IMG/VR virus record: IMGVR_UViG_2595698683_000001 | Coordinates: 6,237-70,236 of that record | DNA from: a virus | Lineage: Duplodnaviria; Caudoviricetes | DNA: 64,000 nucleotides | Direction: 5' to 3' (one strand) | In this document: positions 851 to 64,000 of the stretch, one piece after another | Layout: the number at the start of each line of letters is the position of its first letter | How positions within the stretch are numbered: position 1 is the first letter of the stretch | Made by a program: the position numbers and the translations under genes | Notes under the pieces: generated by a model | Told to the model about the DNA's origin: nothing | What the model saw: the letters and a program-made list of their open reading frames with translations, nothing else | The model's database searches: none

Positions 851-947
851 TGAAGAACACGACCCCGAACTGTGCCTACATCGGAGGCCACCGACCAGGG
901 TATGACCCTGAGTGTGCGTGGTGTGCGCGAGCGGTGGTGACCAACTG

Positions 948-3473
948 ATGTGGCCCCTGCCTGGTGAGGCCCTGAACCGGACCATCGAGGTGGAGGCCGG
1001 TATCGCTGACCTGTACGCCGACGTGCTGAACACCTGGTGCGACCAGGCCCGCGCTGCTGTCCTCCCGACCCTCACCACCAGTGAAAACAACGCGCTCACT
1101 GCGGATGGAAGTTTGCCACCGGAGCCGGGAGGGATAGATGAAACTGCCGGGTTCTGGGATCAACACTCGACTGAGTTGATCCTAGCAGGTATGTCAAATT
1201 TGTACGCATTGTCGCTGGTAGAGGGAATGGAAGGTATGGATATTCCCTTGCCAGACATCAATTTGTCCGGACGGGAACGGCCGGTCATCCCGGCGTCCGT
1301 CGTTCGGTCGATTACTTCGACTAGCTCGGTAGCTGAGGCCGACATCCAGCGGGCTGCCGACATCGTGGAAAGCGTGCCCGAGCTGCGCCAGGCCCGCGAC
1401 GACTTCGTGGCGGCGCAGCGGCCGGACGTGGCAGCGGTGCCCAAGGTGGTGCAGGCCAAGGTCCAGGCAGCGGTGGCGGCGGTGAAGTTCGATCAGGCCC
1501 AGTACGACCCCATGCACACCGACAACGACGTGCCCGTGATCGAGGTGTACGTCACCCGCCAGCGGGAAGCAGCGGCGGCGGTGCTCACGCCCGGCAGCCC
1601 CGAGCTGCGCGACGTGGCCCGTAACGAGGGCTACCAGGCGGCGGGCATCCAGAACGCGGCGGTGGTGGTCGCGGCGGCGCAGTCCGAGGACGAGCTGGAG
1701 AAGGTGTGGATCGCCACCATCGACGGCAAGACGCGGCATACGCACTTCGCCGCCGACGGCCAGCGCGCACCCCTCGCCGGTAAGTTCACGGTCGGTGCCG
1801 CCTTGCTGGACTTCCCAGCAGACCCCGCAGGCCCGGCGGCAGAGGTGAAGAACTGCCGCTGCCGGGTCGGCATCCTGGCACCGGACGAGGAGCTGCCTGA
1901 TGAGGTCGACCGGCACACCGAACGGCTTAATGGCCGGGACAGTGTGCAAGTCAACCGGCAGGGCAGCCAGGCCGACGAAATCAACCGCCGCGCCAAGCAG
2001 GGCACGATCCGCGCCCGAGACGACGAGGACGGGGTAGGCCGCACGGCCAGCGCCGCACCGAGCGAACAGGAGTACGACATGCCCGCAGGTAAGTCCAACA
2101 AGTTCCAGCACGACGGCACCGCCGAGGCGGCGACCACGACACTGGCAACCGAGGACGACGGCGACGGCAGCGCTGAGACGTTCCGCACCTTCACCGACCA
2201 GCCCATTGCCTTCGTCGGCATCGAGACCAGCGACGGTCGGATGCTGGCAACCGACATCGAGTTCAGCGTGCGGACCCCGCCGCTGCCGATGATGTGGACC
2301 AAGCAGACCGGCTACGGCCATGAGGACGCCTTCACCGTCGGCGTGCTGGAAAGCGCCCGTGTCGACGGCGACAAGGTGCTGGGGTCCGGCTACTGGCTGA
2401 ACACCACCGAGGCCGACGAGGCGTTCGGTGAGGCCAGCCATAAGGTGAGCCGCCCCAGCGTTGACCTGGCCAAGACCGAATGGATGTTGACCGACGAGGA
2501 TGGCAACGAAATCACCGAGGAGCAGTGGTGGGACATGCCCATCGACGCCAAGGTGATTCAGACGATTACCGCCGCCGAGCTGATCGGCACGACCATGGTG
2601 GCCACGCCTGCGTTCGGCGACACCATGATCGAGTTCAACAGCGAGCGCGAAACCCGCGACGTTGCCCTGGTGGCCAGCGCCGCCGAGGCGTTCCGGCCGC
2701 GCGTGTACTCCGCTGCGCACTTCGCCGACCCCAAGCTGACCGGCCCCACGCTGCCCACCATGACCGACGACGGGCACATCTTCGGTCACCTGGCGTGCTT
2801 CGGTGCGTGCCACCGCAGCATCCAGGCTGAGTGCGTGGTGGCACCGCGCAGCCGCACCGGCTACAGCATGTTCCACACCAGCCCGGCCGTGCGCCTGGAC
2901 GACGGCACCAGCCTGCCGGTGGGACGCCTCACCGTGGGCAGTGGCCACGCGCCCGACCACGTGAGCGGCCAGGTGGCGGCGGCGCACTACGACACCGCCG
3001 GTACCTGCTTCGCGCTGGTGCGCGTGGGTGAGGACGCACACGGCATCTGGTTCTCCGGCGTGGCCGCGCCCTGGGCCACCGCCGAACAGATCGAAATGGG
3101 CCTGGCCGCACCGCTCAGCGGTGACTGGCGTGACTTCGGCCAGGGCCTGGAGCTGGTGGCGGCGCTGGCCGTGAACACGCCCGGCTTCGCTGTGCGTGGC
3201 CGCGAGGGCGACCAGGGCCAGCCGCTGGCGCTGGTGGCCAGCCTGGGGCCGAACCCGCGCGGTGCGGCAACCAAGGGCGGCAGCGCGCTGAGCGCCAACG
3301 CCATTGCCGACATCGTGAAGAACGCGGTGTCCACGGCGCTGGCCCAGCGCGATACCGACGCCGAGCTGGCAACCCTGCTGGCCAAGGCCGACGAGAAGCT
3401 GGGGCCGATGCCCACGCCGAACGACGAGGTGGCCGAGCTGCTGGCCGAGGCCGACGCGAAGGCGGGTGCCTGA
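948..3473 (+). CDS. MuF-like/capsid maturation protease fusion
   Basis: MuF-type motifs KVWIATIDGKTRHTH and EVKNCRC, then a protease-like domain (ETSDGR...LSGDWR); lies between portal and capsid; ATG 948 preferred, GTG 912 possible. Confidence 0.8.
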   Translation: MWPLPGEALNRTIEVEAGIADLYADVLNTWCDQARAAVLPTLTTSENNALTADGSLPPEPGGIDETAGFWDQHSTELILAGMSNLYALSLVEGMEGMDIPLPDINLSGRERPVIPASVVRSITSTSSVAEADIQRAADIVESVPELRQARDDFVAAQRPDVAAVPKVVQAKVQAAVAAVKFDQAQYDPMHTDNDVPVIEVYVTRQREAAAAVLTPGSPELRDVARNEGYQAAGIQNAAVVVAAAQSEDELEKVWIATIDGKTRHTHFAADGQRAPLAGKFTVGAALLDFPADPAGPAAEVKNCRCRVGILAPDEELPDEVDRHTERLNGRDSVQVNRQGSQADEINRRAKQGTIRARDDEDGVGRTASAAPSEQEYDMPAGKSNKFQHDGTAEAATTTLATEDDGDGSAETFRTFTDQPIAFVGIETSDGRMLATDIEFSVRTPPLPMMWTKQTGYGHEDAFTVGVLESARVDGDKVLGSGYWLNTTEADEAFGEASHKVSRPSVDLAKTEWMLTDEDGNEITEEQWWDMPIDAKVIQTITAAELIGTTMVATPAFGDTMIEFNSERETRDVALVASAAEAFRPRVYSAAHFADPKLTGPTLPTMTDDGHIFGHLACFGACHRSIQAECVVAPRSRTGYSMFHTSPAVRLDDGTSLPVGRLTVGSGHAPDHVSGQVAAAHYDTAGTCFALVRVGEDAHGIWFSGVAAPWATAEQIEMGLAAPLSGDWRDFGQGLELVAALAVNTPGFAVRGREGDQGQPLALVASLGPNPRGAATKGGSALSANAIADIVKNAVSTALAQRDTDAELATLLAKADEKLGPMPTPNDEVAELLAEADAKAGA

Positions 3474-3697
3474 TGGGCTGCGGATGCGGTGGTGGTGCTG
3501 GCAGCAACCGCAGCGACACCATCGGTTACTACGTGGTGCTGCCCAACGGGGGCGGCACCTTGCCCGACGGCGTGAACCCGGCCGACCCCGACGCCGGAAC
3601 GCCGCCGTACGCCTTCTACCAGGAGGCGCACAACCAGGTCGTGCTGAACGGTGGCGGCACCGTGCGGCGGCTGCGTAAGCAGCCTGTCACCACGTGA
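3473..3697 (+). CDS. Small head-region protein (MGCGCGG N-terminus)
   Basis: 74 aa, TGATG-coupled to upstream gene. Confidence 0.65.
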   Translation: MGCGCGGGAGSNRSDTIGYYVVLPNGGGTLPDGVNPADPDAGTPPYAFYQEAHNQVVLNGGGTVRRLRKQPVTT

Positions 3698-3807: not shown

Positions 3808-5607
3808 GTGTTCGTCTCCCCTGCTCCGCACTACGGCGTGAGCACCCGCAAGGTCGGCCAGTTTGCGCATCAGATGCCGCAGACGCTGCCCACGGCAGCG
3901 GCCGAACTGGCTGCGCTGCTGGAAAGCGCGCAGGCCGACATCAACGACATCCGCACCCGCCACGCGGCCGGTGAAACGCTGACGGGCGCTGACGCGACCC
4001 GGTTGCGTTCGCTGCTCGGTGACGTGGACACGCTCACCGCTGCGCACGCCGCTGCCGTGCTGGCCGAGCCCGCCGACGCCGACGAGGTGGCCGGTTTGCT
4101 TGCCCAGGCCGACGGCGCGCCGGAAGCCCCCGAGGCCCCTGCCGACGAGGCACCGGCTGACGAGGCCCCCGAGGGCGGTGCCGGTGGCGCTGCACCCGAG
4201 GCCCCCGCCGACGCCCCGCAGGTGCCGGTCGCTGCCAGCGCAGCGCCTGCCGCCACCAACGGCAACCGCCCAGTGTCGTTCGGCGCTGCGGTCACCGGTG
4301 CCCCGCCCGTGCCCACCGAGGGCGACGAGCCCACGCCGGGCTGGGTCATGCAGCCGGGCGTCCCCGGCTTCAAGGTCGGCATGGAGAAGGTCGGGTTCGC
4401 CGAGATTGCCAAGGCGCTTGACAGCATCCGGCCGGGCAGCCGGGCAGCCGCACGCGGCAACCGCCCCGACAAGCACATGGACGGCAAGTCGTTCAGTGCC
4501 CAGGTCGTGTCGGCCCTGACCCGCGACGTGGAGGTGGTGGACGACCCGCACGCGCTGGTCGCGGCCATCAACAAGGCCACCAGCCTGGTGAAGGGTGAGC
4601 GCGTCACCGCGACCAGCCTCACCGCTGCCGGTGGCTGGTGCGCCCCGTCGGAGCAGCTGTACGACTTCTGCGACGTGCCGGATGCCACCGACCTGCTCTC
4701 GCTGCCGGAAATCACCATCAACCGTGGTGGTATCCGCTGGCCGCGCGAGCCTGATCTGTCCGGCATCTTCGAGGACTTCGAGTGGTTCTTCACCGAGCCC
4801 GAGCTGGAGGCCACCGACCCGGTGACCGGCGCTCCCACTGCCATCAAGCAGTGCGTCGAAATCCCGTGCCCCGAGGACTTTGACGAAATCCGGCTCAACG
4901 CTGTTGGCTGGTGCGTCGAGGCGGGCATTCTCCAGGAGCAGGGCTGGCCGGAGCTGATCGAGTGGTTCATGCGCTCGCTCACTCAGGAGCACCTGCGGGC
5001 ATTGTCCCGCCGGTCCATCCTGAACATCGTGGCGGGCTCCGGTGCCGCCAAGGTGATCCCGCCGACCAGCGTCATGGGCAGCGTGGCGTCGGTGCTCAAC
5101 AGCGTTGCGCTGATGGCCACCAACATCCGGCTCAAGCGGGGCCTGTCGCGTACCGCCACCATCGAGGGCATCGCCCCGAGCTGGTTCTTCGAGGTGCTGC
5201 GCGCCGACCTGGCGTTCCGCGAGGGCACGGACACCTTCGCGGTGACCGACGCCCAGATCCTCGGATGGCTGACGGCGCGCAACATCGCGCTCCAGTTCGT
5301 CGGTGACTGGCAGACCCGTGCTGCTGGCCTGCCCGGCAACCTGGACACGCTGGTGTGGCCGTCGACCGTGCAGCTGGTGCTGTACCCGGCCGGTACCTGG
5401 TTCCGCTCGATGAGCAACGTCATCGAGCTGGGTGTCATGTACCCCAAGGAACAGCTCCAGGTGAACCGCTTCACCCGCATGTTCACCGAGGACGCCATTG
5501 CCGTCGGTAAGCGCTGCGGCGAGTCGGTTCTGGTGACCATTCCGCTCGACGTGACCGGTGCCATCGGTCAGCGCGAGTACCTGGCCGCGAACCAGCCCGC
5601 ACCGTAG
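3808..5607 (+). CDS. Major capsid (hexamer) protein with N-terminal scaffold-like extension
   Basis: AGGAG RBS, strongly biased codons, Ala/Pro/Glu-rich N-terminus then GGWCAPSE...RGGIRWP capsid core; synteny. Confidence 0.85.
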   Translation: MFVSPAPHYGVSTRKVGQFAHQMPQTLPTAAAELAALLESAQADINDIRTRHAAGETLTGADATRLRSLLGDVDTLTAAHAAAVLAEPADADEVAGLLAQADGAPEAPEAPADEAPADEAPEGGAGGAAPEAPADAPQVPVAASAAPAATNGNRPVSFGAAVTGAPPVPTEGDEPTPGWVMQPGVPGFKVGMEKVGFAEIAKALDSIRPGSRAAARGNRPDKHMDGKSFSAQVVSALTRDVEVVDDPHALVAAINKATSLVKGERVTATSLTAAGGWCAPSEQLYDFCDVPDATDLLSLPEITINRGGIRWPREPDLSGIFEDFEWFFTEPELEATDPVTGAPTAIKQCVEIPCPEDFDEIRLNAVGWCVEAGILQEQGWPELIEWFMRSLTQEHLRALSRRSILNIVAGSGAAKVIPPTSVMGSVASVLNSVALMATNIRLKRGLSRTATIEGIAPSWFFEVLRADLAFREGTDTFAVTDAQILGWLTARNIALQFVGDWQTRAAGLPGNLDTLVWPSTVQLVLYPAGTWFRSMSNVIELGVMYPKEQLQVNRFTRMFTEDAIAVGKRCGESVLVTIPLDVTGAIGQREYLAANQPAP

Positions 5608-5702: not shown

Positions 5703-6494
5703 ATGACCGCCCCCGTGATCGACGTGGTGCACTTCACGCCGCCGCCGCTCAACCCGACCACCTATGGCCTGTACGGCGCGGTGGGCACTTGGCAGTCCGA
5801 CCCCGACAACCGGTGGCACCACGGCGTGGAGTTCCGCAGCGGCGGTAACTACGGCGGCGAGGGCAGCTTCGGCGTCTGGAACGCGCCCTGGTGCGGTGCC
5901 CCCGTGCCCGCCGACCAGCTCAAGACGGGCGACCGGCCGGACAACCTGGACCCGTTCGAGCCGGTGGTGGTCTGGGCGTACGACGAATGCGACCTGACCG
6001 CGCCCAGCCGGGCCGAGGTACAGGCCCGCGCCGCCCAGGTGCTGCGCCTGGAGGAGCAGGTGGCCGTGGAGCGCGAGTTCGCCGCGCGCCTGCTGCTGGA
6101 CGCCGCCGACCTGGAGACGCCCATCCCCACCGCCGCCAGCCTGCACCAGGCGGTCGGTGCCCTGGAGGGCGCAGCTGCGCTCACGAACACGCAGGTGTAT
6201 TTCCACATCGGCGCGCAGTGGGTCAGCCAGGATCCCACCGGGGCGCTGTTCAAGAAGTCCGGCACCACCTGGACCAGCCCACTGGGCAATATCTGGGTGG
6301 TCGGCGGCGGCTACGTGGACGGGCTGGAGGACACCATCGTGGCCACCAGCCAGCCCTACGGCTGGCGCGACGAGCCCACCGTGCGCACCGCCATTGACCA
6401 GAAGCACAACCTGTTCGCTGCCGTCGCGGAGCGTAGCGTCCTGGTTGGATACGAGGCGGTCATCGCCGCTGTGACCATCACCCCGGCCCCGTAA
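5703..6494 (+). CDS. Probable second (pentamer) capsid protein
   Basis: 263 aa directly after the major capsid with AGGAGG RBS; matches Cluster B hexamer/pentamer order (recall). Confidence 0.65.
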   Translation: MTAPVIDVVHFTPPPLNPTTYGLYGAVGTWQSDPDNRWHHGVEFRSGGNYGGEGSFGVWNAPWCGAPVPADQLKTGDRPDNLDPFEPVVVWAYDECDLTAPSRAEVQARAAQVLRLEEQVAVEREFAARLLLDAADLETPIPTAASLHQAVGALEGAAALTNTQVYFHIGAQWVSQDPTGALFKKSGTTWTSPLGNIWVVGGGYVDGLEDTIVATSQPYGWRDEPTVRTAIDQKHNLFAAVAERSVLVGYEAVIAAVTITPAP

Positions 6495-9700: not shown

Positions 9701-9988
9701 TTAGGCGGCTGCGGCCACCGCCTCGTTCACCAGGTCGTAGGTGAGCTGGCCGTTGCCGTAGAGGCGGCGCACCTGGCTGGGCTGGAGGGTGAGGCGGGCA
9801 GCGGCACCGAGGGCGACGGTGACGGCGGCGGTGATGTCGCGGTGGTAGGTGCTGGTGACCTCCACGGCGTGGACATCGAACAGGGCGCGGGCCAGGCGAA
9901 CCTCGTCAGCGGTGGTGGCACCGTGGGCGATGGCCGAGCGGAACTCGCGGTCGATGGCCTGGGCGGTGAACGGGCTGATGGTGGACAT
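9701..9988 (-). CDS. Hypothetical protein, lone leftward gene in the structural operon
   Basis: AAGGGAG RBS before ATG 9988; own promoter cassette upstream. Confidence 0.75.
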   Translation of the reverse strand: MSTISPFTAQAIDREFRSAIAHGATTADEVRLARALFDVHAVEVTSTYHRDITAAVTVALGAAARLTLQPSQVRRLYGNGQLTYDLVNEAVAAAA

Positions 9989-10009
9989 TTTGACTCCCTT
10001 ACCTGCGGC

Positions 10010-10070
10010 GGCGGGGCGGTCCCGCCTTGCTGATGTGAACACACTAGCCCGCCTTAGTCGGGTAAGTCAA
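10010..10070 (-). promoter_or_regulatory. Promoter/operator/leader-hairpin cassette, copy 1
   Basis: On - strand: TTGACT (10070-10065), 18-bp spacer, TAGTGT (10046-10041), hairpin 10010-10026; core reads CCTTAGT on +. Confidence 0.85.
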
Positions 10071-10109
10071 GATGACCGATACCGCACCGCCACCGGATAC
10101 CCTGGCGTC

Positions 10110-32151: not shown

Positions 32152-32886
32152 TCACCATCCGGCCTTGGCGGCGCAGACGGGGCCGATGCCGCGTGCGCGG
32201 CTTTCGTCGTTGGTGAGCTGGCGACCGCAGATACCGCACTCGCCAATCTCGTGGCCGTAGCGGGCGCTGGCTGCCTCGGCACCGACGGCGGCGATGCGGA
32301 CCAGGATCGCCCGGCCCTGCTTCATGCTCAGCTTCTGCTCGTCGCTGCCGATGATCTGCTTGACGAACACGTAGCCCGCCCAGCGGCCTGTCTCGGGGCG
32401 GTCGACCTTGTAGAACGCGGTGCCGTTGACGGCGTGCACCTGCGTGTCGATGGCGTAGCGCCCGGCGGGCACCTCGACCGTGGCGTCCTCGTAGCGACGG
32501 TCGTCAATGCGCACGTTGACCTTGGTGGGCAGGCCCTTGAGCCAGCTGATCAGGTTGGTTGCGCCGTGCTTGTAGAGCGGTGCCCAGGCGTAGGCGTGCT
32601 CCCGGCCGATGCCGTCGGCACCGTGGCCCAGAACCTGGTTCAGGCGCTCGCCCAGGGTGGCGGCGGTGGCCACGTCCTCCAGGTTGGCGGCGAAGAACCG
32701 CGCCTCGTCGGTGAGGATGTCAAGCATGGTGGCCAGGGTGGCTACGCGGCTGACGAACTTGTCCTGGCCCTGCACGCTGGACCAGTCGCGGGCGCGGATC
32801 AGGTCTTGGATGAACGACAGCTGGTTCTCGGTGGCCGGGGCGGTGATGGTGCTGGCCGGGGCGGTGGTGGCGAACGGTGAACCCAT
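32152..32886 (-). CDS. DUF6011-type zinc-ribbon protein
   Basis: C-terminal CGICGRQLTNDESRARGIGPVC; AAGGAG RBS. Confidence 0.7.
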   Translation of the reverse strand: MGSPFATTAPASTITAPATENQLSFIQDLIRARDWSSVQGQDKFVSRVATLATMLDILTDEARFFAANLEDVATAATLGERLNQVLGHGADGIGREHAYAWAPLYKHGATNLISWLKGLPTKVNVRIDDRRYEDATVEVPAGRYAIDTQVHAVNGTAFYKVDRPETGRWAGYVFVKQIIGSDEQKLSMKQGRAILVRIAAVGAEAASARYGHEIGECGICGRQLTNDESRARGIGPVCAAKAGW

Positions 32887-32907
32887 GATGTACTCCTTGG
32901 TCGCGGC

Positions 32908-32968
32908 GGCGGGGCTGTCCCGCCTGGCTGATAGGTACACACTAACCCGCCTTAGTCGGGTAAGTCAA
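32908..32968 (-). promoter_or_regulatory. Promoter cassette copy 2, with an adjacent second operator at 32970-32984
   Basis: TTGACT-N18-TAGTGT, core CCTTAGT, hairpin 32908-32924. Confidence 0.85.
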
Positions 32969-33014
32969 CCCCGACATTAACGGGCATGTCACGCGGACGG
33001 TCTACCATCGCCCC

Positions 33015-48965: not shown

Positions 48966-49253
48966 CTAACGAGGTCTGCGGCCGGTTTGCGACCACTGCT
49001 GGCCGCGCTGCATCTGGTACAGCAGCGACACCGCCCGGCCCACCTCCGGCGGCAGCGTGACCATCAGTTCGTCCCAGGCACCGCGCTTGCGCAGCTCGTC
49101 GCACAGCGCCACGAACGGGCCGAAGTGGTCGGCGTCCACGCGCTGGGTCACGACGTACCCGAGGGCGAAGCACAGCGCCGTGGTGGGGGTCATGTACAGC
49201 GGGGTGCCGTCGGCGTAACGGGGCACCTGGGGCACGGGGAGGTTGTGGGTCAC
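48966..49253 (-). CDS. Hypothetical protein (probably leaderless)
   Basis: TAGTCT 6 nt before GTG. Confidence 0.55.
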   Translation of the reverse strand: MTHNLPVPQVPRYADGTPLYMTPTTALCFALGYVVTQRVDADHFGPFVALCDELRKRGAWDELMVTLPPEVGRAVSLLYQMQRGQQWSQTGRRPR

Positions 49254-49259
49254 CGCCCC

Positions 49260-49288
49260 AGACTAGCCCGCCCTTGTCGGGTATCACA
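49260..49288 (-). promoter_or_regulatory. Degenerate promoter/operator copy
   Basis: GACTAGCCCG-CCCTTGT-CGGGTA on +; -10 TAGTCT on -. Confidence 0.6.
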
Positions 49289-49626
49289 GCCCCTCGCGTG
49301 CGCGCGCGTACACGCACGTGCGCGCGGGCGCGTCAGCGTACCGGATCGCACCCCATTTTGTCAAATTGGAGGGCAACTACTTGCCACGGACTTGACTACC
49401 CCGTTAGGCTGCGGCCGAGGGCAGCGCAGCACTACGGGGATAGTCCAGCCCCTACGGCCACGAAAATCAGATTCATCATCCTACTTCTGAGTAGGGTCAC
49501 GTCCGGCTCCGCGTCCAGGGCGCAGCCACGGGGCACACCCCGCCCTCACTCTGCTGGGCGGGCTGCCCCTGGCCTCGCCGGTGACCATCTAGCGCAGCAG
49601 GTCAATTTAGGGTTAGTGTGAAACCT

Positions 49627-50403
49627 ATGACCACAACCACACGACGTAAGACCACGAAGAAGGCGGCTGTTCCCAAGGGGGACGTGCGGGCGGAAACGCT
49701 GGCGCAGTTCAACCGCGAGCTGATCGAGTATTGCGGGCACGATCCAGGGTTCGACCAGCTGGTGCAGACGCTGTTCAGCACGCGGGCAGCCATCAAGCAG
49801 CTGGCCGATGCACGGAAGAACCTGTTCGAGCACGTCAAGGGCTACTACCGGGGCCAGGACGTGGCCGTACCGGGGACGGACTACGTGATTCGGGAGACCG
49901 CGCCGGGGGAGGCCACCACGTACCGGGCGGTGAGCAGTGCCGACGCCAAGAAGGCCGACCCGGCTGCCTGGCGGCGCGCGCAGGTGATGACAGGGTTTGT
50001 GCAGGTGAAGGCCCCGGCGGCGGTGGCTGCGGCCGTGCCGGAGGAAGCGGTGCCGGAGCTGTGCCGGTTGGACAAGGGCGTCGGGCTCACGGAAGCGGTG
50101 GCAGCGTACAAGGAGGCACCGGCCTGGACCAGGCTCAAGGAGCTGCGGGCGGTGGAGCAGGAAACCCTCGGTCGGCTGGAGAAGCTGGCTGCGGACTTCG
50201 GCTGGGACGGCGACCTCAAGGTGTTCGCGGATGGCTGGAGTGTGCAGCTCAAGCGCCAGCAGTACAGCAGTGACGTGCTGGCAGCGGTGGACCCCGAGCT
50301 GTTCGACCGGCTGGCCGTGGTGAAGCTGCGGCAGGCAGCGGCCAGGGTGTACGTCGGCAAGCCCGGCGATGCCGATGGTGCCGAGGATGAGTACGCGGAT
50401 TAG
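49627..50403 (+). CDS. Hypothetical protein
   Basis: 258 aa; TAGTGT 7 nt before ATG. Confidence 0.7.
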   Translation: MTTTTRRKTTKKAAVPKGDVRAETLAQFNRELIEYCGHDPGFDQLVQTLFSTRAAIKQLADARKNLFEHVKGYYRGQDVAVPGTDYVIRETAPGEATTYRAVSSADAKKADPAAWRRAQVMTGFVQVKAPAAVAAAVPEEAVPELCRLDKGVGLTEAVAAYKEAPAWTRLKELRAVEQETLGRLEKLAADFGWDGDLKVFADGWSVQLKRQQYSSDVLAAVDPELFDRLAVVKLRQAAARVYVGKPGDADGAEDEYAD

Positions 50404-50492
50404 CCCCGTCGATGGCGCGCCGATACCGCCGCTGAGCTGCGGTTTTGTGGTGGTACTGGCGCGCCAGCAAATTAGGGGTTATACATATAACC

Positions 50493-50762
50493 ATGGTACG
50501 CATAAAAGGGCGTGGACCCGGCCGTCCACCCGGCCCAGACAAGTTGCTGGTGCCCGTGAAAATGGTGCCTGAGCAGCGGCGACGCTTCAAGGCCATGTGT
50601 GCTGCGAAGGACATGAGTTACGAGCAGCTGATCATCCATTGGATGGATAAAGATGACGCAAATGAGCGTCGTAGAGCCGCACAGCAAAAACATCCGCTTC
50701 ACCAGCCAAAACAGGCCAGTTTCTATCCAGGAGGAGGGCAGCGTGTCCAGCCCCGACAGTGA
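50493..50762 (+). CDS. Ribbon-helix-helix-like DNA-binding protein
   Basis: GRPPGP, beta strand LLVPVKM, then helices EQRRRFKAMCAAKDMSYEQLI. Confidence 0.6.
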   Translation: MVRIKGRGPGRPPGPDKLLVPVKMVPEQRRRFKAMCAAKDMSYEQLIIHWMDKDDANERRRAAQQKHPLHQPKQASFYPGGGQRVQPRQ

Positions 50763-51039
50763 CGACGAGGCGGTGCTTGCCCCGGCCGAATGGACCGGCA
50801 AGCCCGTGGTGTGCACCACCTGCCAGAACGCGGGCAAGCCCGTGATGGGACAGGACGGCTGGCAGCTGCCCATCCACGGAATGCTGGAGCGCACGTTCCC
50901 GTTCCGCATTGTCACCTGCCCCGGCAGCATGAGCCCCGTGACCGCCATGCAGGTGCCTGCGTCCATGGAGCAGCGCATCGAGGACCGTGTGGTCGACGCC
51001 ATGCCCGACCGCGTAAACGACGATTGGGACACCCCGTGA
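50743..51039 (+). CDS. Hypothetical Zn-binding protein
   Basis: GGAGGAGG RBS; CTTC...H...CPGS. Confidence 0.55.
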   Translation: MSSPDSDDEAVLAPAEWTGKPVVCTTCQNAGKPVMGQDGWQLPIHGMLERTFPFRIVTCPGSMSPVTAMQVPASMEQRIEDRVVDAMPDRVNDDWDTP

Positions 51040-51197
51040 AGACCTACGACGTGGACATCAAGGCCAGCTACCGCGTGGAAGCCACCGACATCGACGCGGC
51101 GATGACCAAGGCGTACCGGCTGGCCGACGGCACCGACGAGCCCAGCGAGCAGGCCCGCGTGGTCGACACCGAATGCACGAAGGTGGCCCTGCTGTGA
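51036..51197 (+). CDS. Hypothetical protein
   Basis: GTGA overlap. Confidence 0.55.
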   Translation: MKTYDVDIKASYRVEATDIDAAMTKAYRLADGTDEPSEQARVVDTECTKVALL

Positions 51198-51299
51198 CGC
51201 CCTGGCACTGGGCGGTGCTGCGTGAGCTGCTGGCCCACCCCGAGCGGCGCGTGATCGTGACATGCGTGCCGCCCCAGCACCCGCAGACAGGGCAGCACC

Positions 51300-51737
51300 G
51301 TGGATGAGTGGCCCGAGCTGGAGCGCCTGGCCCAGGCGGTGGACGCCTGGGACGAATGGCCCCTGTCACCGATCTACGATCGCGCGGCGGCTGTCATTGA
51401 CGCAGCGCGTGACGTGGTGGCCAACTACCGCGAGAGCAAGGCGCTGATCGAGCACTACAAGAACATGCCGCCGATCACGCTGGACACGCTGCGCCGCGAG
51501 GGCCTGGTAACCGAGGCCCAGTATCGGCGTCAGGTGGGGCTGCCGCCTGCGCCCGAACAGGGCGTGAAGGCGTGCATCGAAATTCCGGTGCCCGAGGGCT
51601 ACGACGAGGGCGATGATCCCGTAGTGCGCCATGCCCGCAAGGTGTGGGACGACTTCGGCCAGGCCATGCAGCCCGGCCATCCCACCGTGCACGTGCCCAG
51701 GGAGGAGCCGGGAGGTGATCGACCGCGTGACCATTGA
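51300..51737 (+). CDS. Hypothetical protein
   Basis: ORF track; typical codon usage. Confidence 0.6.
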   Translation: MDEWPELERLAQAVDAWDEWPLSPIYDRAAAVIDAARDVVANYRESKALIEHYKNMPPITLDTLRREGLVTEAQYRRQVGLPPAPEQGVKACIEIPVPEGYDEGDDPVVRHARKVWDDFGQAMQPGHPTVHVPREEPGGDRPRDH

Positions 51738-51915
51738 GCACCAGCGCGGCACCCAGCCCGTGGTCCGCAGCCGCGTGGACCAGGCCACCGCCTGCTACTA
51801 CCCCGACAGCCAGCGCGTGGTCATCGTCGCGGACAAGGCCAACTTCACCGCCGCACTCGACGCGCTGACGGAGCTGACCCTGGAAATGCTGGCACCCAAG
51901 GAGGCCACGCCATGA
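51715..51915 (+). CDS. Hypothetical protein
   Basis: GGAGGAG upstream; stop overlaps next ATG. Confidence 0.55.
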   Translation: MIDRVTIEHQRGTQPVVRSRVDQATACYYPDSQRVVIVADKANFTAALDALTELTLEMLAPKEATP

Positions 51916-52136
51916 CGCTTACCGCGCCGGGCGGCTGGGCGCTGCCCACCGAATACATCTACGAGTTCAGCGACGTACCGTTCCCTGACCCGCTGGTGCT
52001 GCCCTACTTCACGATCACGCGCGGCGGTATCCGGTACCCGCTGGGGCCGGTGCGGCACTACCGTTGGCACGCCCGTAGCCCATGGGGCAGGCGCATCAAG
52101 CGCGTGCTGTTCGGCGTGCAGTGGATCGACGTATGA
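51912..52136 (+). CDS. Mini-protein homologous to a segment of the major capsid protein
   Basis: AAGGAGG RBS; 25 of 43 aligned positions identical by eye to capsid 4615-4743. Confidence 0.75.
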   Translation: MTLTAPGGWALPTEYIYEFSDVPFPDPLVLPYFTITRGGIRYPLGPVRHYRWHARSPWGRRIKRVLFGVQWIDV

Positions 52137-52360
52137 CCCGGCCCGCGCCCATCATGGAGCTGACCGCCGAGCACGCCGACGGCACCATCTACGCCGACGG
52201 CGAAGGCGACCTCTGGCATCCGTGCCCGTTCGGATGGGTGGTCACCCGGCGTCGGCCGTTCAGCATCGACCAGCAGCTGGCCGCACCACTGCCGATCTAT
52301 GGCCCGTACGTGCCGGTGCTCGGCCCGCCGCAGCCACGTGAGGGACAATCGCACCCATGA
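52133..52360 (+). CDS. Hypothetical protein
   Basis: ATGA overlaps; D.EGDLW and YGPY motifs. Confidence 0.6.
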   Translation: MTRPAPIMELTAEHADGTIYADGEGDLWHPCPFGWVVTRRRPFSIDQQLAAPLPIYGPYVPVLGPPQPREGQSHP

Positions 52361-52950
52361 CGGTCAGCGACGACGACATCGGCTCCATGCTGGACGAGGA
52401 GCTGCTGGCCCGCCGTACCAAGGTGATGTTCCTGCGCAACGCGGGGGCCACCTGGCAGGCCATCAGCAAAGAGGTCAGCGTCAGCATCGCCACGTGCCGC
52501 AAGGACTACCAGGTGGTCTGCCGCGACATCAACAACGAGCAGCCCGCTGACGTGGTGGCCCGGCACCGCGCGGTCATCTTCGACATCCAGCGGGCCAACT
52601 ACCCCGCCATGATGCGCGGCGACAAGGACGCAGCGGCTACCATCCTGCGGGCGCTCGACCGCGAGGCCAAGCTGCTCGGGCTCGACGCACCCACGCGCAT
52701 CCTGGCCGGTGTCAGCGACGTGGAATTCGCCAACGAGGCTGCCCGGCTCATCGAACGCATCACCACGCTGGACCCCACAACCATGAAGGAGCTGAGCCGT
52801 GCCACCAACAGCGCCCCGCACATCATCGACGCAGAACCCGCTGACGTTCCCGCTGACCAGGCGGGTACTGCGCAGGCTACGCCGTTGTCTGGGCCAGCGG
52901 GCGCTGGTGCCGGTGCCGACGATGACGACGACTGGAGCAACATCGCCTGA
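52357..52950 (+). CDS. HTH DNA-binding protein, candidate terminase small subunit
   Basis: LRNAGATWQAISKEVSVSIAT HTH; REAKLLGLDAP motif. Confidence 0.65.
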   Translation: MTVSDDDIGSMLDEELLARRTKVMFLRNAGATWQAISKEVSVSIATCRKDYQVVCRDINNEQPADVVARHRAVIFDIQRANYPAMMRGDKDAAATILRALDREAKLLGLDAPTRILAGVSDVEFANEAARLIERITTLDPTTMKELSRATNSAPHIIDAEPADVPADQAGTAQATPLSGPAGAGAGADDDDDWSNIA

Positions 52951-52966
52951 CCCGCACCACGGGCCG

Positions 52967-53518
52967 GTGACGCACCGCTGCCGCCTTGTCGAGCGGCACG
53001 AAATCACCACCGTTGCCGACGTGGACAGCGTCGATTACGCCGACCTGTACGCGGCGCTGTTCGACCAGGCGCGGGCCTGGCACACCGCCCACGGGCTGGA
53101 ACCCGTCGACCTGGCGCAGATCAATCCCAGGCCCACCACCGGCCCGCTGGCGGCGGTGCAGGCAGTGGTCGGCGTGGAGTGGACCGTCACGGTGGGGCGC
53201 GGCGACATCAGCGAGGACCAGCGCTTGCCGGGCGTCATGGACAGCTGGAAGTGGTCAGCGCGGTTCCACCACTGGCGCAAGGTGTTCAACCGAATGGACG
53301 GACGCCAGGGGCGGCTGCTGGCCTTGCGGGAGGACGGCCGAGCCACGGTCACCAAGCTGTTCCCCGAGGCGACCCTGGCACCCGACCAGCGCCCGCCCTG
53401 GATGCACCGCAGCACCGAGGTGGTCGGTGCCCGCACCGGGCCGGTGGACGGATGCACGTGCCATCTGCCCGGCCCGTTCAAGGACATCTGCCCTGTCCAC
53501 TTCGACGCCGACACGTAG
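52967..53518 (+). CDS. Hypothetical protein
   Basis: Open frame; C-terminal CTC...CPVH. Confidence 0.55.
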   Translation: MTHRCRLVERHEITTVADVDSVDYADLYAALFDQARAWHTAHGLEPVDLAQINPRPTTGPLAAVQAVVGVEWTVTVGRGDISEDQRLPGVMDSWKWSARFHHWRKVFNRMDGRQGRLLALREDGRATVTKLFPEATLAPDQRPPWMHRSTEVVGARTGPVDGCTCHLPGPFKDICPVHFDADT

Positions 53519-53540
53519 GCGGCGCGGTACCATCGCGCGC

Positions 53541-53777
53541 ATGGGCCTCGCTGACCACCGCCACCCCGGCACGCAGCACCTCGTCGCGCTGCTGGAGCCG
53601 AACCCCAATCTCCCCGATCCGTTGCACCACGTGGCCGACGTTGCCGCCTGTATGCGCGACAAGATGCTGGAGCTGCTGGGCGACGGCCCCGAGCTGACCG
53701 CCGGGCTGCGCAAGCTGCTGGAGGCCAAGGACTGCTTCGTGCGCCAGGCCCTGCTCGACCGGGTGGACGACCAGTGA
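53541..53777 (+). CDS. Small helical protein (GLRKLLEAKDCFVR motif)
   Basis: TACCAT 7 nt before ATG; motif recalled from many phages. Confidence 0.7.
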   Translation: MGLADHRHPGTQHLVALLEPNPNLPDPLHHVADVAACMRDKMLELLGDGPELTAGLRKLLEAKDCFVRQALLDRVDDQ

Positions 53778-53992
53778 CCGACGTGCACGTCATCGACAAG
53801 CGCGCCCAGCGTGCGATGGATGCGCAGCTGACCGAACACCTGCGCATCGCCCGGCGCAACCAAATCGCCGCCAACGTGCGCCAGCTGGCCGGGTCGCTGT
53901 GGTGGCAGGGTGCCGCCGGGGGCAACCCCGAGGCGTTCGACACCCGAGCCGACCTGCTGGCCCAGGCCCGCGCCGAGGGCTTGGACGTATGA
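53774..53992 (+). CDS. Hypothetical protein
   Basis: GTGA and ATGA overlaps. Confidence 0.6.
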   Translation: MTDVHVIDKRAQRAMDAQLTEHLRIARRNQIAANVRQLAGSLWWQGAAGGNPEAFDTRADLLAQARAEGLDV

Positions 53993-54588
53993 GCGCAGAC
54001 CCTGCCGACCCGTGCGAGCTTGACGCCGACGAGCCCGACGCCAAAGGCTGGCGACCGGACCACCTGCTGGTACCGGCCATCCTGGCGGGGTCACCGGTGA
54101 CGATGGCCGACCTGTCCCCGGCCGACCGTGCCTGGGCGGTGGCGGGGCTCATGCGTGCCGGGCACACCGCCGAACGCATCCGCGACCGCATGGGGTGCAG
54201 CCTGCGCACGGTGCGGATGGTCAGCGCCTGGGCGGCGACGACCGCCTGCATGTTGCTCCAGGAGGAGTCCGAGCACTTCGCCGACGAGTACCGGATGCAG
54301 TCGCTGGAGGTCGCGCGCCTGTCCCGTGACCTGGCCACCGCCGAGGCCACCGCCGCGCGCTACCAGGACCAGCTGGCCCGCATGATCGACCGGCTCCAGC
54401 TCGACGGGGGCATTCCCACGTTCCCCAAGTGCGGGCACCCGAAAACCAAGTACAACACCTACACCGCGCCCAAGACCGGCAAGACCAGTTGCCGCATGTG
54501 CCACTGTGACGCCCAGGCCCGATACGAGGCCCGCAAACAGCAAACCGCCCCAGCCGACGGGGCCGGGGCGGTCGACGCTGGCGTTTAG
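53989..54588 (+). CDS. HTH plus Zn-ribbon DNA-binding protein
   Basis: GHTAERIRDRMGCSLRTVR HTH, coiled coil, CGH...NTY...CRMC. Confidence 0.7.
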   Translation: MSADPADPCELDADEPDAKGWRPDHLLVPAILAGSPVTMADLSPADRAWAVAGLMRAGHTAERIRDRMGCSLRTVRMVSAWAATTACMLLQEESEHFADEYRMQSLEVARLSRDLATAEATAARYQDQLARMIDRLQLDGGIPTFPKCGHPKTKYNTYTAPKTGKTSCRMCHCDAQARYEARKQQTAPADGAGAVDAGV

Positions 54589-54746
54589 GCGTCGGCGTAG
54601 CCGTGCTGGCGGGCAACGCGGCGGTCGCGGCGGTGGGAGCGCACCTTGATGGCCTTCTTCGCGCCCGCGCGGTACTCCAGGGCGTGGCGGCTGTAACGGC
54701 CGAAGGCGTCACGCTCGTCTGCGGTGGTGGGGTGCTCAGCGCGCAT
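54585..54746 (-). CDS. 53-aa basic protein (absent from the ORF track)
   Basis: GAAAGG RBS; MRAEHPTT...KKAIKVRSHRRDRRVARQHGYADA; own promoter cassette. Confidence 0.7.
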   Translation of the reverse strand: MRAEHPTTADERDAFGRYSRHALEYRAGAKKAIKVRSHRRDRRVARQHGYADA

Positions 54747-54766
54747 GATGTTTACCTTTCAGTGGT

Positions 54767-54827
54767 GGCGGGGCTGTCCCGCCGGGCTGGTGTGAACACA
54801 CTAACCCGCCTTAGTCGGGTAAGTCAA
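54767..54827 (-). promoter_or_regulatory. Promoter cassette copy 3
   Basis: TTGACT-N18-TAGTGT, core CCTTAGT, hairpin 54767-54783. Confidence 0.85.
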
Positions 54828-54858
54828 GATGACCACCGCATGGGCGTAGGGTCGGGGC

Positions 54859-55167
54859 ATGGCCAAGGCACGCAAGGGCTCCAGGCGTGGCGGTGCACTG
54901 CGCGGGGGCCGGTCCAAAATCGCACGTAGCAGGGGTCGCGGCACGGTCGCACTGCACGCCCAGGCGGGCGGCATCGCCACGTTCGCCAAGGGCGGCGGGG
55001 GCGGTTATCGCGGCTTCAAGTCCAAGAAGCAATGGCGCTGGGCCTGGGCGAACCATAAGCCCTGGGCGCGCAAGAAGTCGCACGAAACGGCCGGTGGCCC
55101 CAAGGTGCGCTATCGCCGCCTCCCGGCCAGCAAGCACAGCGGGCACAAGGGTGCACGCACTGGCTAA
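54859..55167 (+). CDS. Highly basic K/R/G-rich protein
   Basis: 102 aa with a single acidic residue; FKSKKQWRWAWA motif. Confidence 0.7.
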   Translation: MAKARKGSRRGGALRGGRSKIARSRGRGTVALHAQAGGIATFAKGGGGGYRGFKSKKQWRWAWANHKPWARKKSHETAGGPKVRYRRLPASKHSGHKGARTG

Positions 55168-55202
55168 GTTCTGATAACCCGGTTATCAGGTGCCGCCAGC
55201 GG

Positions 55203-55703
55203 TTACCCCAGCGCCCCGAGCGCACTGGCCAGGAACACCAGCACCAGCACCGCAGTGAGGGCCACATAGCCCGCCTGCCGCCAGCTGGCCCACGGCCAGG
55301 CCACCACCTCGGGTTCGGCCGTTGCCCACGCTGGCGGGCACCACAGCGCCGCTGTGCCGACACCCTGGCCCAGGCACACCCGGCACCGGTACGTGTCAAC
55401 CAGCCAGCGCATGTCGTGCCGGTAGCGGCACTGGCCGCACCCCTGGCACCAGTCGGCGCTCCCGTCCAGGCACGTCTGGACGCCGGGCTCCACCACGGGC
55501 TTGCCGACCACGGTGCCGTCGTGGGCCAGGCGGGGCGCTGGCTGCGCCACCAGCGGCGTGAACGCAAACCCGTCGGGCACCTGGCGCACGGTGCCGCCAC
55601 CGTGGTCGTGCATGGCCTGCACCGCCGCGCCCAGGCGCTCGAACTGCCGGTCCTGGTCGCGGAAGCCCTTCGCGGCCACGCGGGGCACTCGTCCACCCAT
55701 CAC
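55203..55703 (-). CDS. Hypothetical protein with Cys motifs and C-terminal TM
   Basis: GGAGG RBS; C..C pairs. Confidence 0.5.
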   Translation of the reverse strand: MMGGRVPRVAAKGFRDQDRQFERLGAAVQAMHDHGGGTVRQVPDGFAFTPLVAQPAPRLAHDGTVVGKPVVEPGVQTCLDGSADWCQGCGQCRYRHDMRWLVDTYRCRVCLGQGVGTAALWCPPAWATAEPEVVAWPWASWRQAGYVALTAVLVLVFLASALGALG

Positions 55704-56086
55704 CACACCTCCAGGGGTACGTCGCAGTCGTCGGCGTGCTGGGCCAGGTAATGCGCGCCGCACGTCTTGCAATGGTCTGTGTCGTCGTAGGGGTCGGTGG
55801 CGGCGCGCAGCGCGGCGGTCATCCGCGCACCCTGGCGGCAGCTGCACCCTGGGCAGTGCGGACCCCGTATGTTGCTGCGCCGGTACGTGCCGCCCTCGCT
55901 GCCCGGCACCAGGCGGTCGGCAATCACCTCGTCCTCGGTGACCAACCGGCCGCACTCCCAGCAGGGCACTTTCACCCCGTCGCCGCCGAACCCGGCCTCG
56001 GGGCTCACCAGCCACTTGCGCCGGGCGCGCCGGTCATAGCTGCTGCCGCGCTCATTGCGGTTGCTGCGCCCGCAGATGCTGCTCAC
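55700..56086 (-). CDS. HNH endonuclease-like protein
   Basis: CWECG...ADRLVPGSEGG.Y...NIR..HCPGC; degenerate catalytic residues. Confidence 0.65.
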   Translation of the reverse strand: MSSICGRSNRNERGSSYDRRARRKWLVSPEAGFGGDGVKVPCWECGRLVTEDEVIADRLVPGSEGGTYRRSNIRGPHCPGCSCRQGARMTAALRAATDPYDDTDHCKTCGAHYLAQHADDCDVPLEVW

Positions 56087-58310: not shown

Positions 58311-58595
58311 TTACTCGTTGACGGCGTTCATCCAGGTGATGGCCCGCATGGCGTCGGCGGCGCTGGCACCACCCTCACCCGTGCCCACGATCACGATGCG
58401 CTCGACGCGCCCGTTGTGGACGTAGGTACCGCGCAGCACCATGTCGAACTGGAGGTCATCCAGCGTGATGGTGCGGTGCAGCGCCTCGGCCACGCGCAGC
58501 ATGGAATCCATCGACTCGGCGGGGTCGGTGGACTCGATGTCCACCTGCGTGCCGCGTGAGGTGAGGATCGAGAAGGTGAGGGGCTTGCTGAGCAT
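58311..58595 (-). CDS. Hypothetical protein
   Basis: AAGGAG RBS directly after a cassette. Confidence 0.7.
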   Translation of the reverse strand: MLSKPLTFSILTSRGTQVDIESTDPAESMDSMLRVAEALHRTITLDDLQFDMVLRGTYVHNGRVERIVIVGTGEGGASAADAMRAITWMNAVNE

Positions 58596-58617
58596 TGCTG
58601 GCTCCTTGGGTCGCGGC

Positions 58618-58678
58618 GGCGGGGCTGTCCCGCCTGGCTGATGTATGAACACTAACCCGACTAAGGCGGGTAAGTCAA
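58618..58678 (-). promoter_or_regulatory. Promoter cassette copy 4 (inverted core)
   Basis: TTGACT-N18-TAGTGT, core ACTAAGG on +, hairpin 58618-58634. Confidence 0.85.
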
Positions 58679-58848
58679 GAGCTTCTACCAGCGAAAATAG
58701 ATGGATCAACGGCGTGACGGCGCACCATGCCGTCGGCACGCTCGGCCCAGTGCTTACCGCACACCGCGCAGTAAGCATGACCCCGAAAGGTGCGGGCCGG
58801 GGCCTTGCCAGACCCCGGACACCGCACCCGATCAGTTGCGCCCGGCAT
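58675..58848 (-). CDS. Small Cys-containing protein
   Basis: CPGSG...CAVCG...H. Confidence 0.5.
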   Translation of the reverse strand: MPGATDRVRCPGSGKAPARTFRGHAYCAVCGKHWAERADGMVRRHAVDPSIFAGRSS

Positions 58849-62583: not shown

Positions 62584-62913
62584 CTATGCCTCCTCGGACT
62601 GGATGCGGGCGATGGCTGCGGCGGCGTCCTTGGCGCTGGGCACCGACCGCACGTAGATGATGGAGCTGCCCGGCGACAAGTCGACCTGATAACCGATGGC
62701 GATCATGTCGTCGGCCAGCAGCTTGGCCTTGCGGACGTTGGCGCTGTCCAGGTCGCTGACGCTAACCCAGACGTTGGCCGGGATGCTGCGCCCGTTGCCC
62801 CGGTGCACGGAGTAACCGGCCCGGTGGATCGGTTGCGTGATGATGCCGAAGTCGCGGCGCAGCGCCCGGCTGACGACCGGTGCTGCGGGGAACGGGCTGG
62901 CGGGCTTGGACAT
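62584..62913 (-). CDS. Hypothetical protein
   Basis: AGGAGG RBS directly after a cassette. Confidence 0.7.
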   Translation of the reverse strand: MSKPASPFPAAPVVSRALRRDFGIITQPIHRAGYSVHRGNGRSIPANVWVSVSDLDSANVRKAKLLADDMIAIGYQVDLSPGSSIIYVRSVPSAKDAAAAIARIQSEEA

Positions 62914-62934
62914 TGCGGGCCTCCTGGTAGCGGT

Positions 62935-62995
62935 GGCGGGGCGGTCCCGCCTGGCTGATATGAGCACACTAACCCGACTAAGGCGGGTAAGTCAA
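62935..62995 (-). promoter_or_regulatory. Promoter cassette copy 6 (inverted core)
   Basis: TTGACT-N18-TAGTGT, core ACTAAGG, hairpin 62935-62951. Confidence 0.85.
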
Positions 62996-63047
62996 GACCT
63001 TGGCAGGGCCAGGACCAGGCAATTTGCCCGGCCCCGGCCCTGGAGGC

Positions 63048-63764: not shown

Positions 63765-63789
63765 TTTGGGGCTCCTTGCGGTTGTGCGT

Positions 63790-63850
63790 AGCGGGGCGGT
63801 CCCGCTGTGCTGATGTGAACACACTAACCCGCCTTAGTCGGGTAAGTCAA
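63790..63850 (-). promoter_or_regulatory. Promoter cassette copy 7
   Basis: TTGACT-N18-TAGTGT, core CCTTAGT, hairpin 63790-63806 with a compensatory A-T outer pair. Confidence 0.85.
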
Positions 63851-64000
63851 GACGACCACGGAAACCAGTTTTTGCAGGTCAGGGGCCATCTTTTACGTCC
63901 ACCCCTGGTACCGCCCCCGGTGCCCGGCTCCGAATTTAGACTAACCCGGTATCCTCCGGCCTCGCAACTCCTCCGGTAGTCCCTCCGATATGCTCCGGCC

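Follow-up and report, generated by a model that had tools for sequence, protein, structure and literature searches.

Why would a tailed phage keep, far from its head genes, a short separate gene whose product begins like a piece of its own major capsid protein? The question is raised by a 74-amino-acid (aa) open reading frame (ORF), P0001, in the IMG/VR virus record IMGVR_UViG_2595698683_000001. This record is 70,236 bp long and estimated to be 99% complete; we analysed its bases 6237-70236, a stretch of 64,000 nucleotides (nt) that we call the window and in which all positions are given. We found the ORF to be a genuine accessory gene, maintained by purifying selection, of a Cooper-like (Coopervirus) mycobacteriophage. 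Judged from the alignments, residues 1-46 of its product descend from the N-terminal arm (N-arm) and first beta-strand of a phage-type HK97-fold major capsid protein (MCP), and the small protein is not itself a capsid protein. As for its role, we favour, with a probability of roughly 0.35, a mimic of the MCP N-arm that would dock on capsid protein and fold on binding. The features on which the argument turns are the following.

51912..52136, + strand: the small gene (P0001), 74 aa plus stop, from ATG at 51912 to TGA at 52134-52136; member of PHROG 20604.
51898..51904, + strand: AAGGAGG, a Shine-Dalgarno-like site read from the sequence, 7 nt before the ATG.
51915..52049, + strand: capsid-derived part of the small gene (codons 2-46, from BLASTP and hhalign), with an N-arm motif, a variable linker and a strand motif.
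52050..52133, + strand: basic Trp/Arg-rich tail of the small gene (codons 47-74), the most conserved part of the small family.
3808..5607, + strand: the MCP gene, longest ORF 599 aa (phrog_777, E 9.8e-251; NF033847, 654.9 bits against a cut-off of 75).
4615..4752, + strand: the source segment within the MCP gene (codons 270-315), N-arm and first beta-strand, the best-conserved stretch of the MCP family.

Capsid residue numbers count from the longest ORF, although the true MCP start is probably further downstream than the GTG at 3808 since the profile matches start at residues 20-31. BLASTP aligned residues 2-46 of the small protein with capsid residues 270-315 (26/46 identical, 31/46 positive, one gap, 52.8 bits, E 4e-14). 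A preliminary description of this DNA had counted 25 identities in 43 positions by eye and proposed a diverged copy of a capsid segment at the protein level, which the search bears out. Comparison of the small family with 42 capsids in hhalign gave a probability of 99.4 and an E of 3.4e-21, over residues 2-46 only, and the small protein is also matched by the PHROG major-head-protein profile 777 (E 1.7e-10) and by NCBIfam NF033847 (E 1.9e-9, 37.3 bits against the cut-off of 75, profile positions 234-279 of 549). When the 795 stop-to-stop frames of the window were compared all against all with BLASTP, the capsid and the small protein formed the top non-overlapping match (E 4.6e-11). The 45 aligned codons encode 26 identical residues, 13 of them by the same codon and 13 by a different one, and nucleotide identity is 87/135; the six codon pairs named earlier (CTT/CTC, GCG/GCT, GGC/GGT, CCC/CCG, GAA/GAG and GTA/GTG) are all present. 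The two sites are 47.3 kb apart, in line with the earlier figure of about 47 kb.

Two motifs make up the capsid-derived part, A.GGW..P....Y.F..VP for the N-arm and LP..TI.RGGIRYP for the strand. A linker joins them, and it is here that indels occur among the relatives of the small gene. Of the 16 residues in the segment that are invariant in capsids, P0001 has 13; C278 and D316 are lost and S281 is replaced by T. In 13 members of the family (P0006, being truncated, was left out), mean retention was 0.60 for the 31 capsid columns with at least 95% conservation and 0.29 for the 17 others (one-sided Mann-Whitney p 0.002). The retention of capsid motif residues is thus non-random. E301, E314 and D316 are kept in no member and C278 in almost none. 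Identity of the small-family N-terminal part to capsids reaches 52-59% at best, with medians of 47-54%, whereas capsids share a median of 84% with one another in the segment. Since this part is about equidistant from all capsids, either the capture is old or the copy evolves fast; its 46 residues are too few for placement on a tree.

The source segment stands out within the capsid family as well. When 42 capsids, the most distant 33% identical to the MCP of the window, were aligned, 18 columns proved invariant, and 16 of these lie within residues 273-316. An AlphaFold2 (AF2) model of capsid residues 255-599 (mean predicted local distance difference test score, pLDDT, 70.9) retrieved many HK97-fold capsids in Foldseek with probability 1.00; a search of the PDB with the capsid protein sequence returned no match. 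Residues 1-35 of the model have pLDDT below 50, while GIRW (55-58) is predicted as a strand in a block of mean pLDDT 75 beside a block of 83. In our reading, the long helix 127-156 of the model is the spine helix. The copied piece, as modelled, is then the N-arm plus the first strand toward the E-loop, N-terminal of the spine helix, which agrees with the earlier placement of the segment near the start of the capsid fold. N-arms are usually variable, and the extreme conservation of the capsid motif is therefore without a ready explanation. According to the relevant part of bioRxiv 10.1101/2022.09.09.507160, N-arms contact neighbouring capsid subunits at long range and are poorly predicted in monomers.

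The small gene has the marks of a translated and selected gene. ATGA overlaps join its own ATG to the upstream stop and its own TGA to the downstream ATG, and the GC content at third codon positions in its frame is 0.88, the same as in the capsid gene. The ribosome-binding site AAGGAGG, the coordinates and the length of 74 aa had all been given exactly. The phrog_20604 profile matches its product over the full length with E 1.6e-47, residues 1-73 aligning to positions 1-75 of the 76 in the profile. For three distinct phage orthologues, the ratio of nonsynonymous to synonymous substitution rates (dN/dS, Nei-Gojobori) is 0.32-0.47 over the whole length, with 0.17-0.44 from RGGIR to the end against 0.49-0.93 before RGGIR; the ratios are rough, coming from about 56-61 synonymous sites, and the AlanGrant and Vincenzo sequences are identical. 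The orthologues are free of frameshifts and differ by one in-frame insertion of 11 codons (Cooper), located in the linker between the two capsid-like motifs. The earlier suggestion of selection on the protein therefore stands, and the neutral decay that would have spoken against it was not seen. Four wastewater runs were also searched. Two 151-nt contigs (X5) are identical to 51949-52099 and 52086-52236 and may stem from the window's own source; a further contig (X1) joins 51846 to 52147 in a gene-less, Stinger-like arrangement (80% likeness, 37 letters on the shorter side). These matches are weak and we made no use of them.

The small protein has no predicted fold of its own. The AF2 model of the protein alone has a mean pLDDT of 44.7, with a few short strands and no helix of at least four residues. 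Pfam holds no family for either the small protein or the capsid protein, and the best score of a feature search in the ESM Atlas with the small protein (0.79) was under the level of a lead.

An unrelated basic and aromatic tail had been recorded in the preliminary description, which overlooked that conservation in the family is highest in this tail and not in the capsid-like part. Residues 42-74 have an isoelectric point (pI) of 11.72, a charge of +5.9 and an aromaticity of 0.18, against a charge of -8.2 for the equivalent capsid stretch 316-345. In an alignment of 15 rows (14 family members and the capsid segment), 13 of the 28 tail positions are invariant or nearly so: R51, W52, A54, R55, W58, G59, R61, K63, R64, L66, G68, V69 and W71. 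The family layout is a capsid-like N-terminal part, RGGIR, and a tail of the form RW.AR..WG.R.KR.L.GV.W, to which P0001 conforms; RGGIR, common to the capsid and the small family, is the invariant core of the family.

The tail has no significant match to the capsid in hhalign, none elsewhere in the window (best E 0.006 over 11 residues) and no relatives among proteins outside the family in a phmmer search of 1.84 billion representatives. We also considered two ways in which it might derive from the capsid gene. A frameshifted continuation of the capsid was ruled out by reading the other two frames of the capsid gene. As for a repeat of the N-arm segment, tail-only alignments set against the capsid alignment in hhalign scored 12.0 with all tails, which was reached by 41 of 150 column shuffles; with the five long-tail members the score was 17.6, reached by 6 of 150 shuffles, and the tail fell on that same N-arm segment, a hint of an internal repeat that we treat as unsupported.

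The small gene is rare. At E 1e-3 the small protein matches 535 of 50,697 phage records, almost always via the capsid gene (as in ChrisnMich and Rosebush, which match in this way only). Six records match at a coverage of at least 80% and E 1e-3, and five at E 1e-9. The latter five are three phages, Cooper, Vincenzo and AlanGrant, and within IMG/VR the gene was found in Cooper and Vincenzo only. Their proteins (Cooper gp67, 85 aa; Vincenzo gp68 and AlanGrant gp69, 76 aa each) are 69-78% identical to P0001 over the full length and have the same two-part build. Cooper gp67 has the same operon position and differs by the 11-residue linker insertion, whereas AlanGrant gp69 and Vincenzo gp68 have GTG starts and other neighbours. 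In AlanGrant (locus L002, 974-1907), a 173-aa gene lies upstream of the small gene and a 62-aa gene downstream; by eye the latter looks like the upstream gene of the window, suggesting that the order of the modules was swapped. Stinger, the flanks of which align well, is without about 270 bp that correspond to the small gene and the end of the upstream gene. The MCP of ChrisnMich is 99% identical over the mature region, and capsids of carriers and non-carriers are 97-99% identical where compared.

Beyond cultured phages, 5.8 billion clustered proteins yielded six clusters by sequence search and 14 by profile search, and phmmer against the 1.84 billion representatives returned five small relatives, with capsids making up most of the other 10 hits (E <=0.001). 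No copy of the small gene was found in 185,579 species genomes. The 14 clusters form two subfamilies, one with a short tail, as here, and one with about 20 extra C-terminal residues. The second (P0007, P0140, P0141, P0143 and P0144) comes from metagenome assemblies; its capsid-like part is nearer to real capsids and keeps the second Cys, and its longer tail has RWP followed by a hydrophobic strand. Three further candidates were rejected. The sole locus from the metagenome scan (L008) was spurious, being an ORF in another frame of an unrelated AT-rich gene. The metagenomic protein P0018 (202 aa), considered as a second capture of the motif, aligns at residues 50-147 to capsid genes of Microbacterium phages (31.5% identity) and is probably a partial or diverged capsid gene. 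P0006, which seemed to be a member without the N-terminal part, is a truncated call of the P0142 type.

What the protein might do is suggested by what was copied. Since N-arms bind a surface of capsid protein, the simplest partner for a copy of an N-arm would be that surface. In the reading that we favour, the retained motif (A.GGW..P....Y.F..VP ... LP..TI.RGGIR) would occupy the docking site normally taken by the N-arm and first strand of a capsid subunit, and the capsid protein concerned would most probably be still unassembled or in the course of assembly. A tail of charge +6 would replace the strongly acidic capsid stretch that follows the motif and, given the reversal of charge, could lie against the acidic capsid stretch (316-345) or against nucleic acid. 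The outcome would be either that head assembly is modulated or that a small basic protein is taken into heads. In favour of this reading, the copied part is an element of the capsid interface with its key residues kept, and a low pLDDT of the protein modelled alone is expected of a segment that would become ordered only on its partner.

Several findings weigh against a partner in the capsid. The small gene lies outside the head (structural) module, 47 kb off, as would suit a non-structural gene; of the two halves, the capsid-like one is under less constraint (dN/dS 0.49-0.93); and the capsid-invariant C278, E301, E314 and D316 are lost in the small family. The gene is rare and dispensable, being absent from Stinger at the same site, and its patchy distribution points to a dispensable accessory function and not to a core assembly factor. 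With carrier and non-carrier capsids 97-99% identical, there is no sign of a capsid adapted to the small protein. PHROG 20604 is labelled 'virion structural protein', as are the RefSeq entries of Cooper and Vincenzo, but we do not take the label as evidence, since we saw no proteomic support for it and the GenBank originals read 'hypothetical protein'; it may simply reflect the capsid similarity. Location, the less constrained capsid-like half and the near-identical capsids fit an accessory counter-defence gene instead. As a decoy or competitor, the capsid motif would be made early in infection and occupy, without triggering it, a host or prophage factor that reads this motif on freshly synthesised capsid protein, either an abortive-infection sensor or a host factor (e.g. 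EF-Tu) that such a sensor uses. The copied stretch, with 16 of the 18 invariant capsid columns, is a constrained epitope that a sensor could use, its copy evolves faster than the tail, and the gene looks like an accessory one, patchy in near-identical phages, set among small non-structural genes and relocated in AlanGrant. Precedents for sensing are described for CapRel SJ46, which senses capsid protein (in the part of PMC9712102 concerned), for Avs7 and Dsr1, which sense it together with EF-Tu (likewise in bioRxiv 10.64898/2026.01.04.697583), and for the Gol region of T4 gp23, which binds EF-Tu and activates Lit (likewise in PMC3014915). We nevertheless consider a decoy unlikely: no cognate sensor or sensed epitope is on record for these phages, the hosts of which were not searched for sensors, and the conserved, unrelated basic tail is left unaccounted for. 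PADLOC, a library of defence and not of counter-defence genes, gave no match for the small protein and its three neighbours. We rate just as low a variant in which the protein would act as a stand-alone Gol-like module, where an early copy of the capsid motif would saturate or block a host or prophage sensor, or a host factor such as EF-Tu that it uses, ahead of the bulk of real capsid protein, while the tail would lock the complex in an inactive state. Of the roles named in the preliminary description (a decoy for a capsid sensor, a regulator of capsid assembly or size, and an inhibitor of competing related phages), the last is weakened by the close likeness of carrier and non-carrier capsids, in which no difference between self and non-self is visible.

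The tail might also be the active part, binding nucleic acid, a membrane or a host protein, with the N-terminal part a mere inherited leader or spacer. The strongest conservation of the family lies there (13/28 positions; dN/dS 0.17-0.44 against 0.49-0.93), the pI of 11.72 would suit such a role, and within its non-structural operon the gene is next to one for a putative DNA-binding protein. We find this doubtful, as the N-terminal part is kept in 13/13 full-length members, retention is focused on the conserved positions of the capsid (p 0.002), which is unexpected of a spacer, and the invariant core of the family, RGGIR, is common to the capsid. It is far less probable that the gene is a functionless relic of illegitimate recombination, a piece of the capsid gene in the right arm that is still open by chance. 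Mycobacteriophage genomes are mosaic according to the part of PMC1475703 that treats this, and the gene is rare, dispensable and without a fold of its own in the model. Against a relic, the frame is intact in all members seen although synonymous sites relative to the capsid are near saturation, dN/dS stays under 0.5, the signals of translational coupling are kept, and both motif and tail are kept in two diverged subfamilies.

Set beside known systems other than PHROG 20604, the small protein at most resembles some of them and belongs to none. It shares homology with the N-arm and first strand of the HK97-fold MCP (NF033847 MCP_Sipho, phrog_777) over residues 2-46, but is without the spine helix, A domain, P domain and E-loop, scores under the NF033847 cut-off and is about 50-58% identical to any capsid in the segment where capsids share a median of 84%. 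For a decoration, cement or minor virion protein one would expect a gene in the head module, and the gene of P0001 lies 47 kb from that of the MCP. In capsid piracy, small proteins that mimic assembly motifs are a known tool. CpmB of SaPI1, encoded by a satellite, copies the capsid-binding end of the scaffolding protein of its helper, and T4 internal proteins carry a capsid-targeting sequence, a short shared assembly motif that directs a small protein to the procapsid. In contrast to CpmB, which copies a scaffold from a satellite, P0001 copies the capsid protein and does so in the phage's own genome; nor does it look satellite-borne, as its gene lies inside a 70,236-bp, 99%-complete phage record that is syntenic with Cooper. 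The analogy would extend at most to CpmB, to capsid-targeting sequences or to a free-standing Gol.

The T4 Gol region is, in the account of PMC3014915 that bears on it, a stretch of 29 residues in the first quarter of gp23, called its most conserved region, and its partner is domains II-III of EF-Tu. Like the source segment it is short, lies early in the MCP and is the most conserved region of its own capsid family; unlike P0001 it is part of gp23 and not a separate gene, and we claim no sequence relation between them. By analogy, and as far as these sources describe them, the Gol and Avs7 cases indicate that a capsid motif can have partners outside the capsid. DSAD1, a phage protein that counters the tail-tube sensor DSR2 (PMC11087589), would be like a decoy in role, as an accessory protein that blocks the sensor of a structural protein; in the part of that source devoted to it no resemblance of DSAD1 to the tail tube is stated, whereas resemblance to a structural protein is the main feature of P0001. 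In the literature covered, which leaves out subscription journals, we found nothing that describes the small gene or a decoy made of a capsid fragment, no description of a function for Cooper gp67, Vincenzo gp68 or AlanGrant gp69, no proteomics of any carrier phage and no data on expression of the small gene.

Capsid-sensing bacterial defences are a current topic, and the small gene carries the most conserved motif of a large family of actinophage capsids in a form that nature has cut down to 46 residues and that selection maintains outside the capsid gene. This provides a ready probe for the binding partner of that motif. Carriers (Cooper, Vincenzo and AlanGrant) and non-carriers (e.g. Stinger) with near-identical capsids grow on M. 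smegmatis mc2155, which makes the question testable. Binding to capsid protein alone would add modestly to assembly biology; a decoy role would amount to a new principle of counter-defence, the first built from a fragment of the sensed structural protein itself.

The surroundings of the small gene place the phage among mycobacteriophages. A 1,651-bp stretch around it has matches in 55 phage records, all of Mycobacterium or Mycolicibacterium phages, the best being Cooper (90.6% identity over 84% of the length). According to their taxonomy lines, Cooper, AlanGrant and Stinger are classified in the genus Coopervirus, and PMC8248883 places the relatives BrownCNA, Mithril and Hangman in subcluster B4. 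The gene lies in a rightward operon of small genes, the counterpart of Cooper gp62-74, flanked by replication genes on one side and by a block of leftward small genes on the other. Its immediate neighbours are as follows.

51727..51915, + strand: upstream gene, 62 aa, with a GTG start at 51727 by analogy with Cooper gp66 (phrog_5953, E 3.3e-31).
52133..52360, + strand: downstream gene, 75 aa, in the frame of the ORF 52082..52360; homologue of Cooper gp68 and Stinger gp66 in the DNA alignment.

The putative DNA-binding protein beside the small gene is encoded at 52357-52950 (197 aa). It matches phrog_645, labelled 'Rnase E', with E 1.5e-67; in GenBank, the records of relatives describe it as DNA-binding or as a helix-turn-helix protein, and Pfam HTH_24 matches weakly (E 0.012). 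The two sets of labels are in conflict.

In the head module, about 255-265 residues precede the HK97 fold in the capsid ORF (3808-4570), including an Ala/Pro/Glu-rich stretch, and this extension has the appearance of a large, scaffold-like delta domain. In the corresponding part of bioRxiv 10.1101/2022.09.09.507160, some actinophage capsid proteins are described as having delta-like extensions at the N-terminus, up to 300 residues long. A 74-aa Gly-rich ORF (3473-3697) lies between an 853-aa head-module ORF (912..3473) and the capsid gene, and a 263-aa ORF without an NCBIfam match (5703-6494) follows the capsid gene directly. From the annotation 'major capsid hexamer protein' on the capsid genes of relatives a separate vertex protein is to be expected, and this neighbour of the capsid gene is the one that carries the annotation of pentamer protein.

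A promoter scan of 49000-56000 gave no sigma-70-like sites. A repeat of about 65 bp occurs at six sites or more in the window (9985-10095, 32880-32990, 54745-54855, 58560-58680, 62900-63010 and 63770-63880). It consists of a GC-rich hairpin (GGCGGGGC..GTCCCGCC) followed by a conserved stretch with GGGTAAGTCAAGA at its end, and its 15-bp core reads CCCGCCTTAGTCGGG in four copies and the exact reverse complement in two. The repeat is possibly a promoter/operator or terminator cassette.

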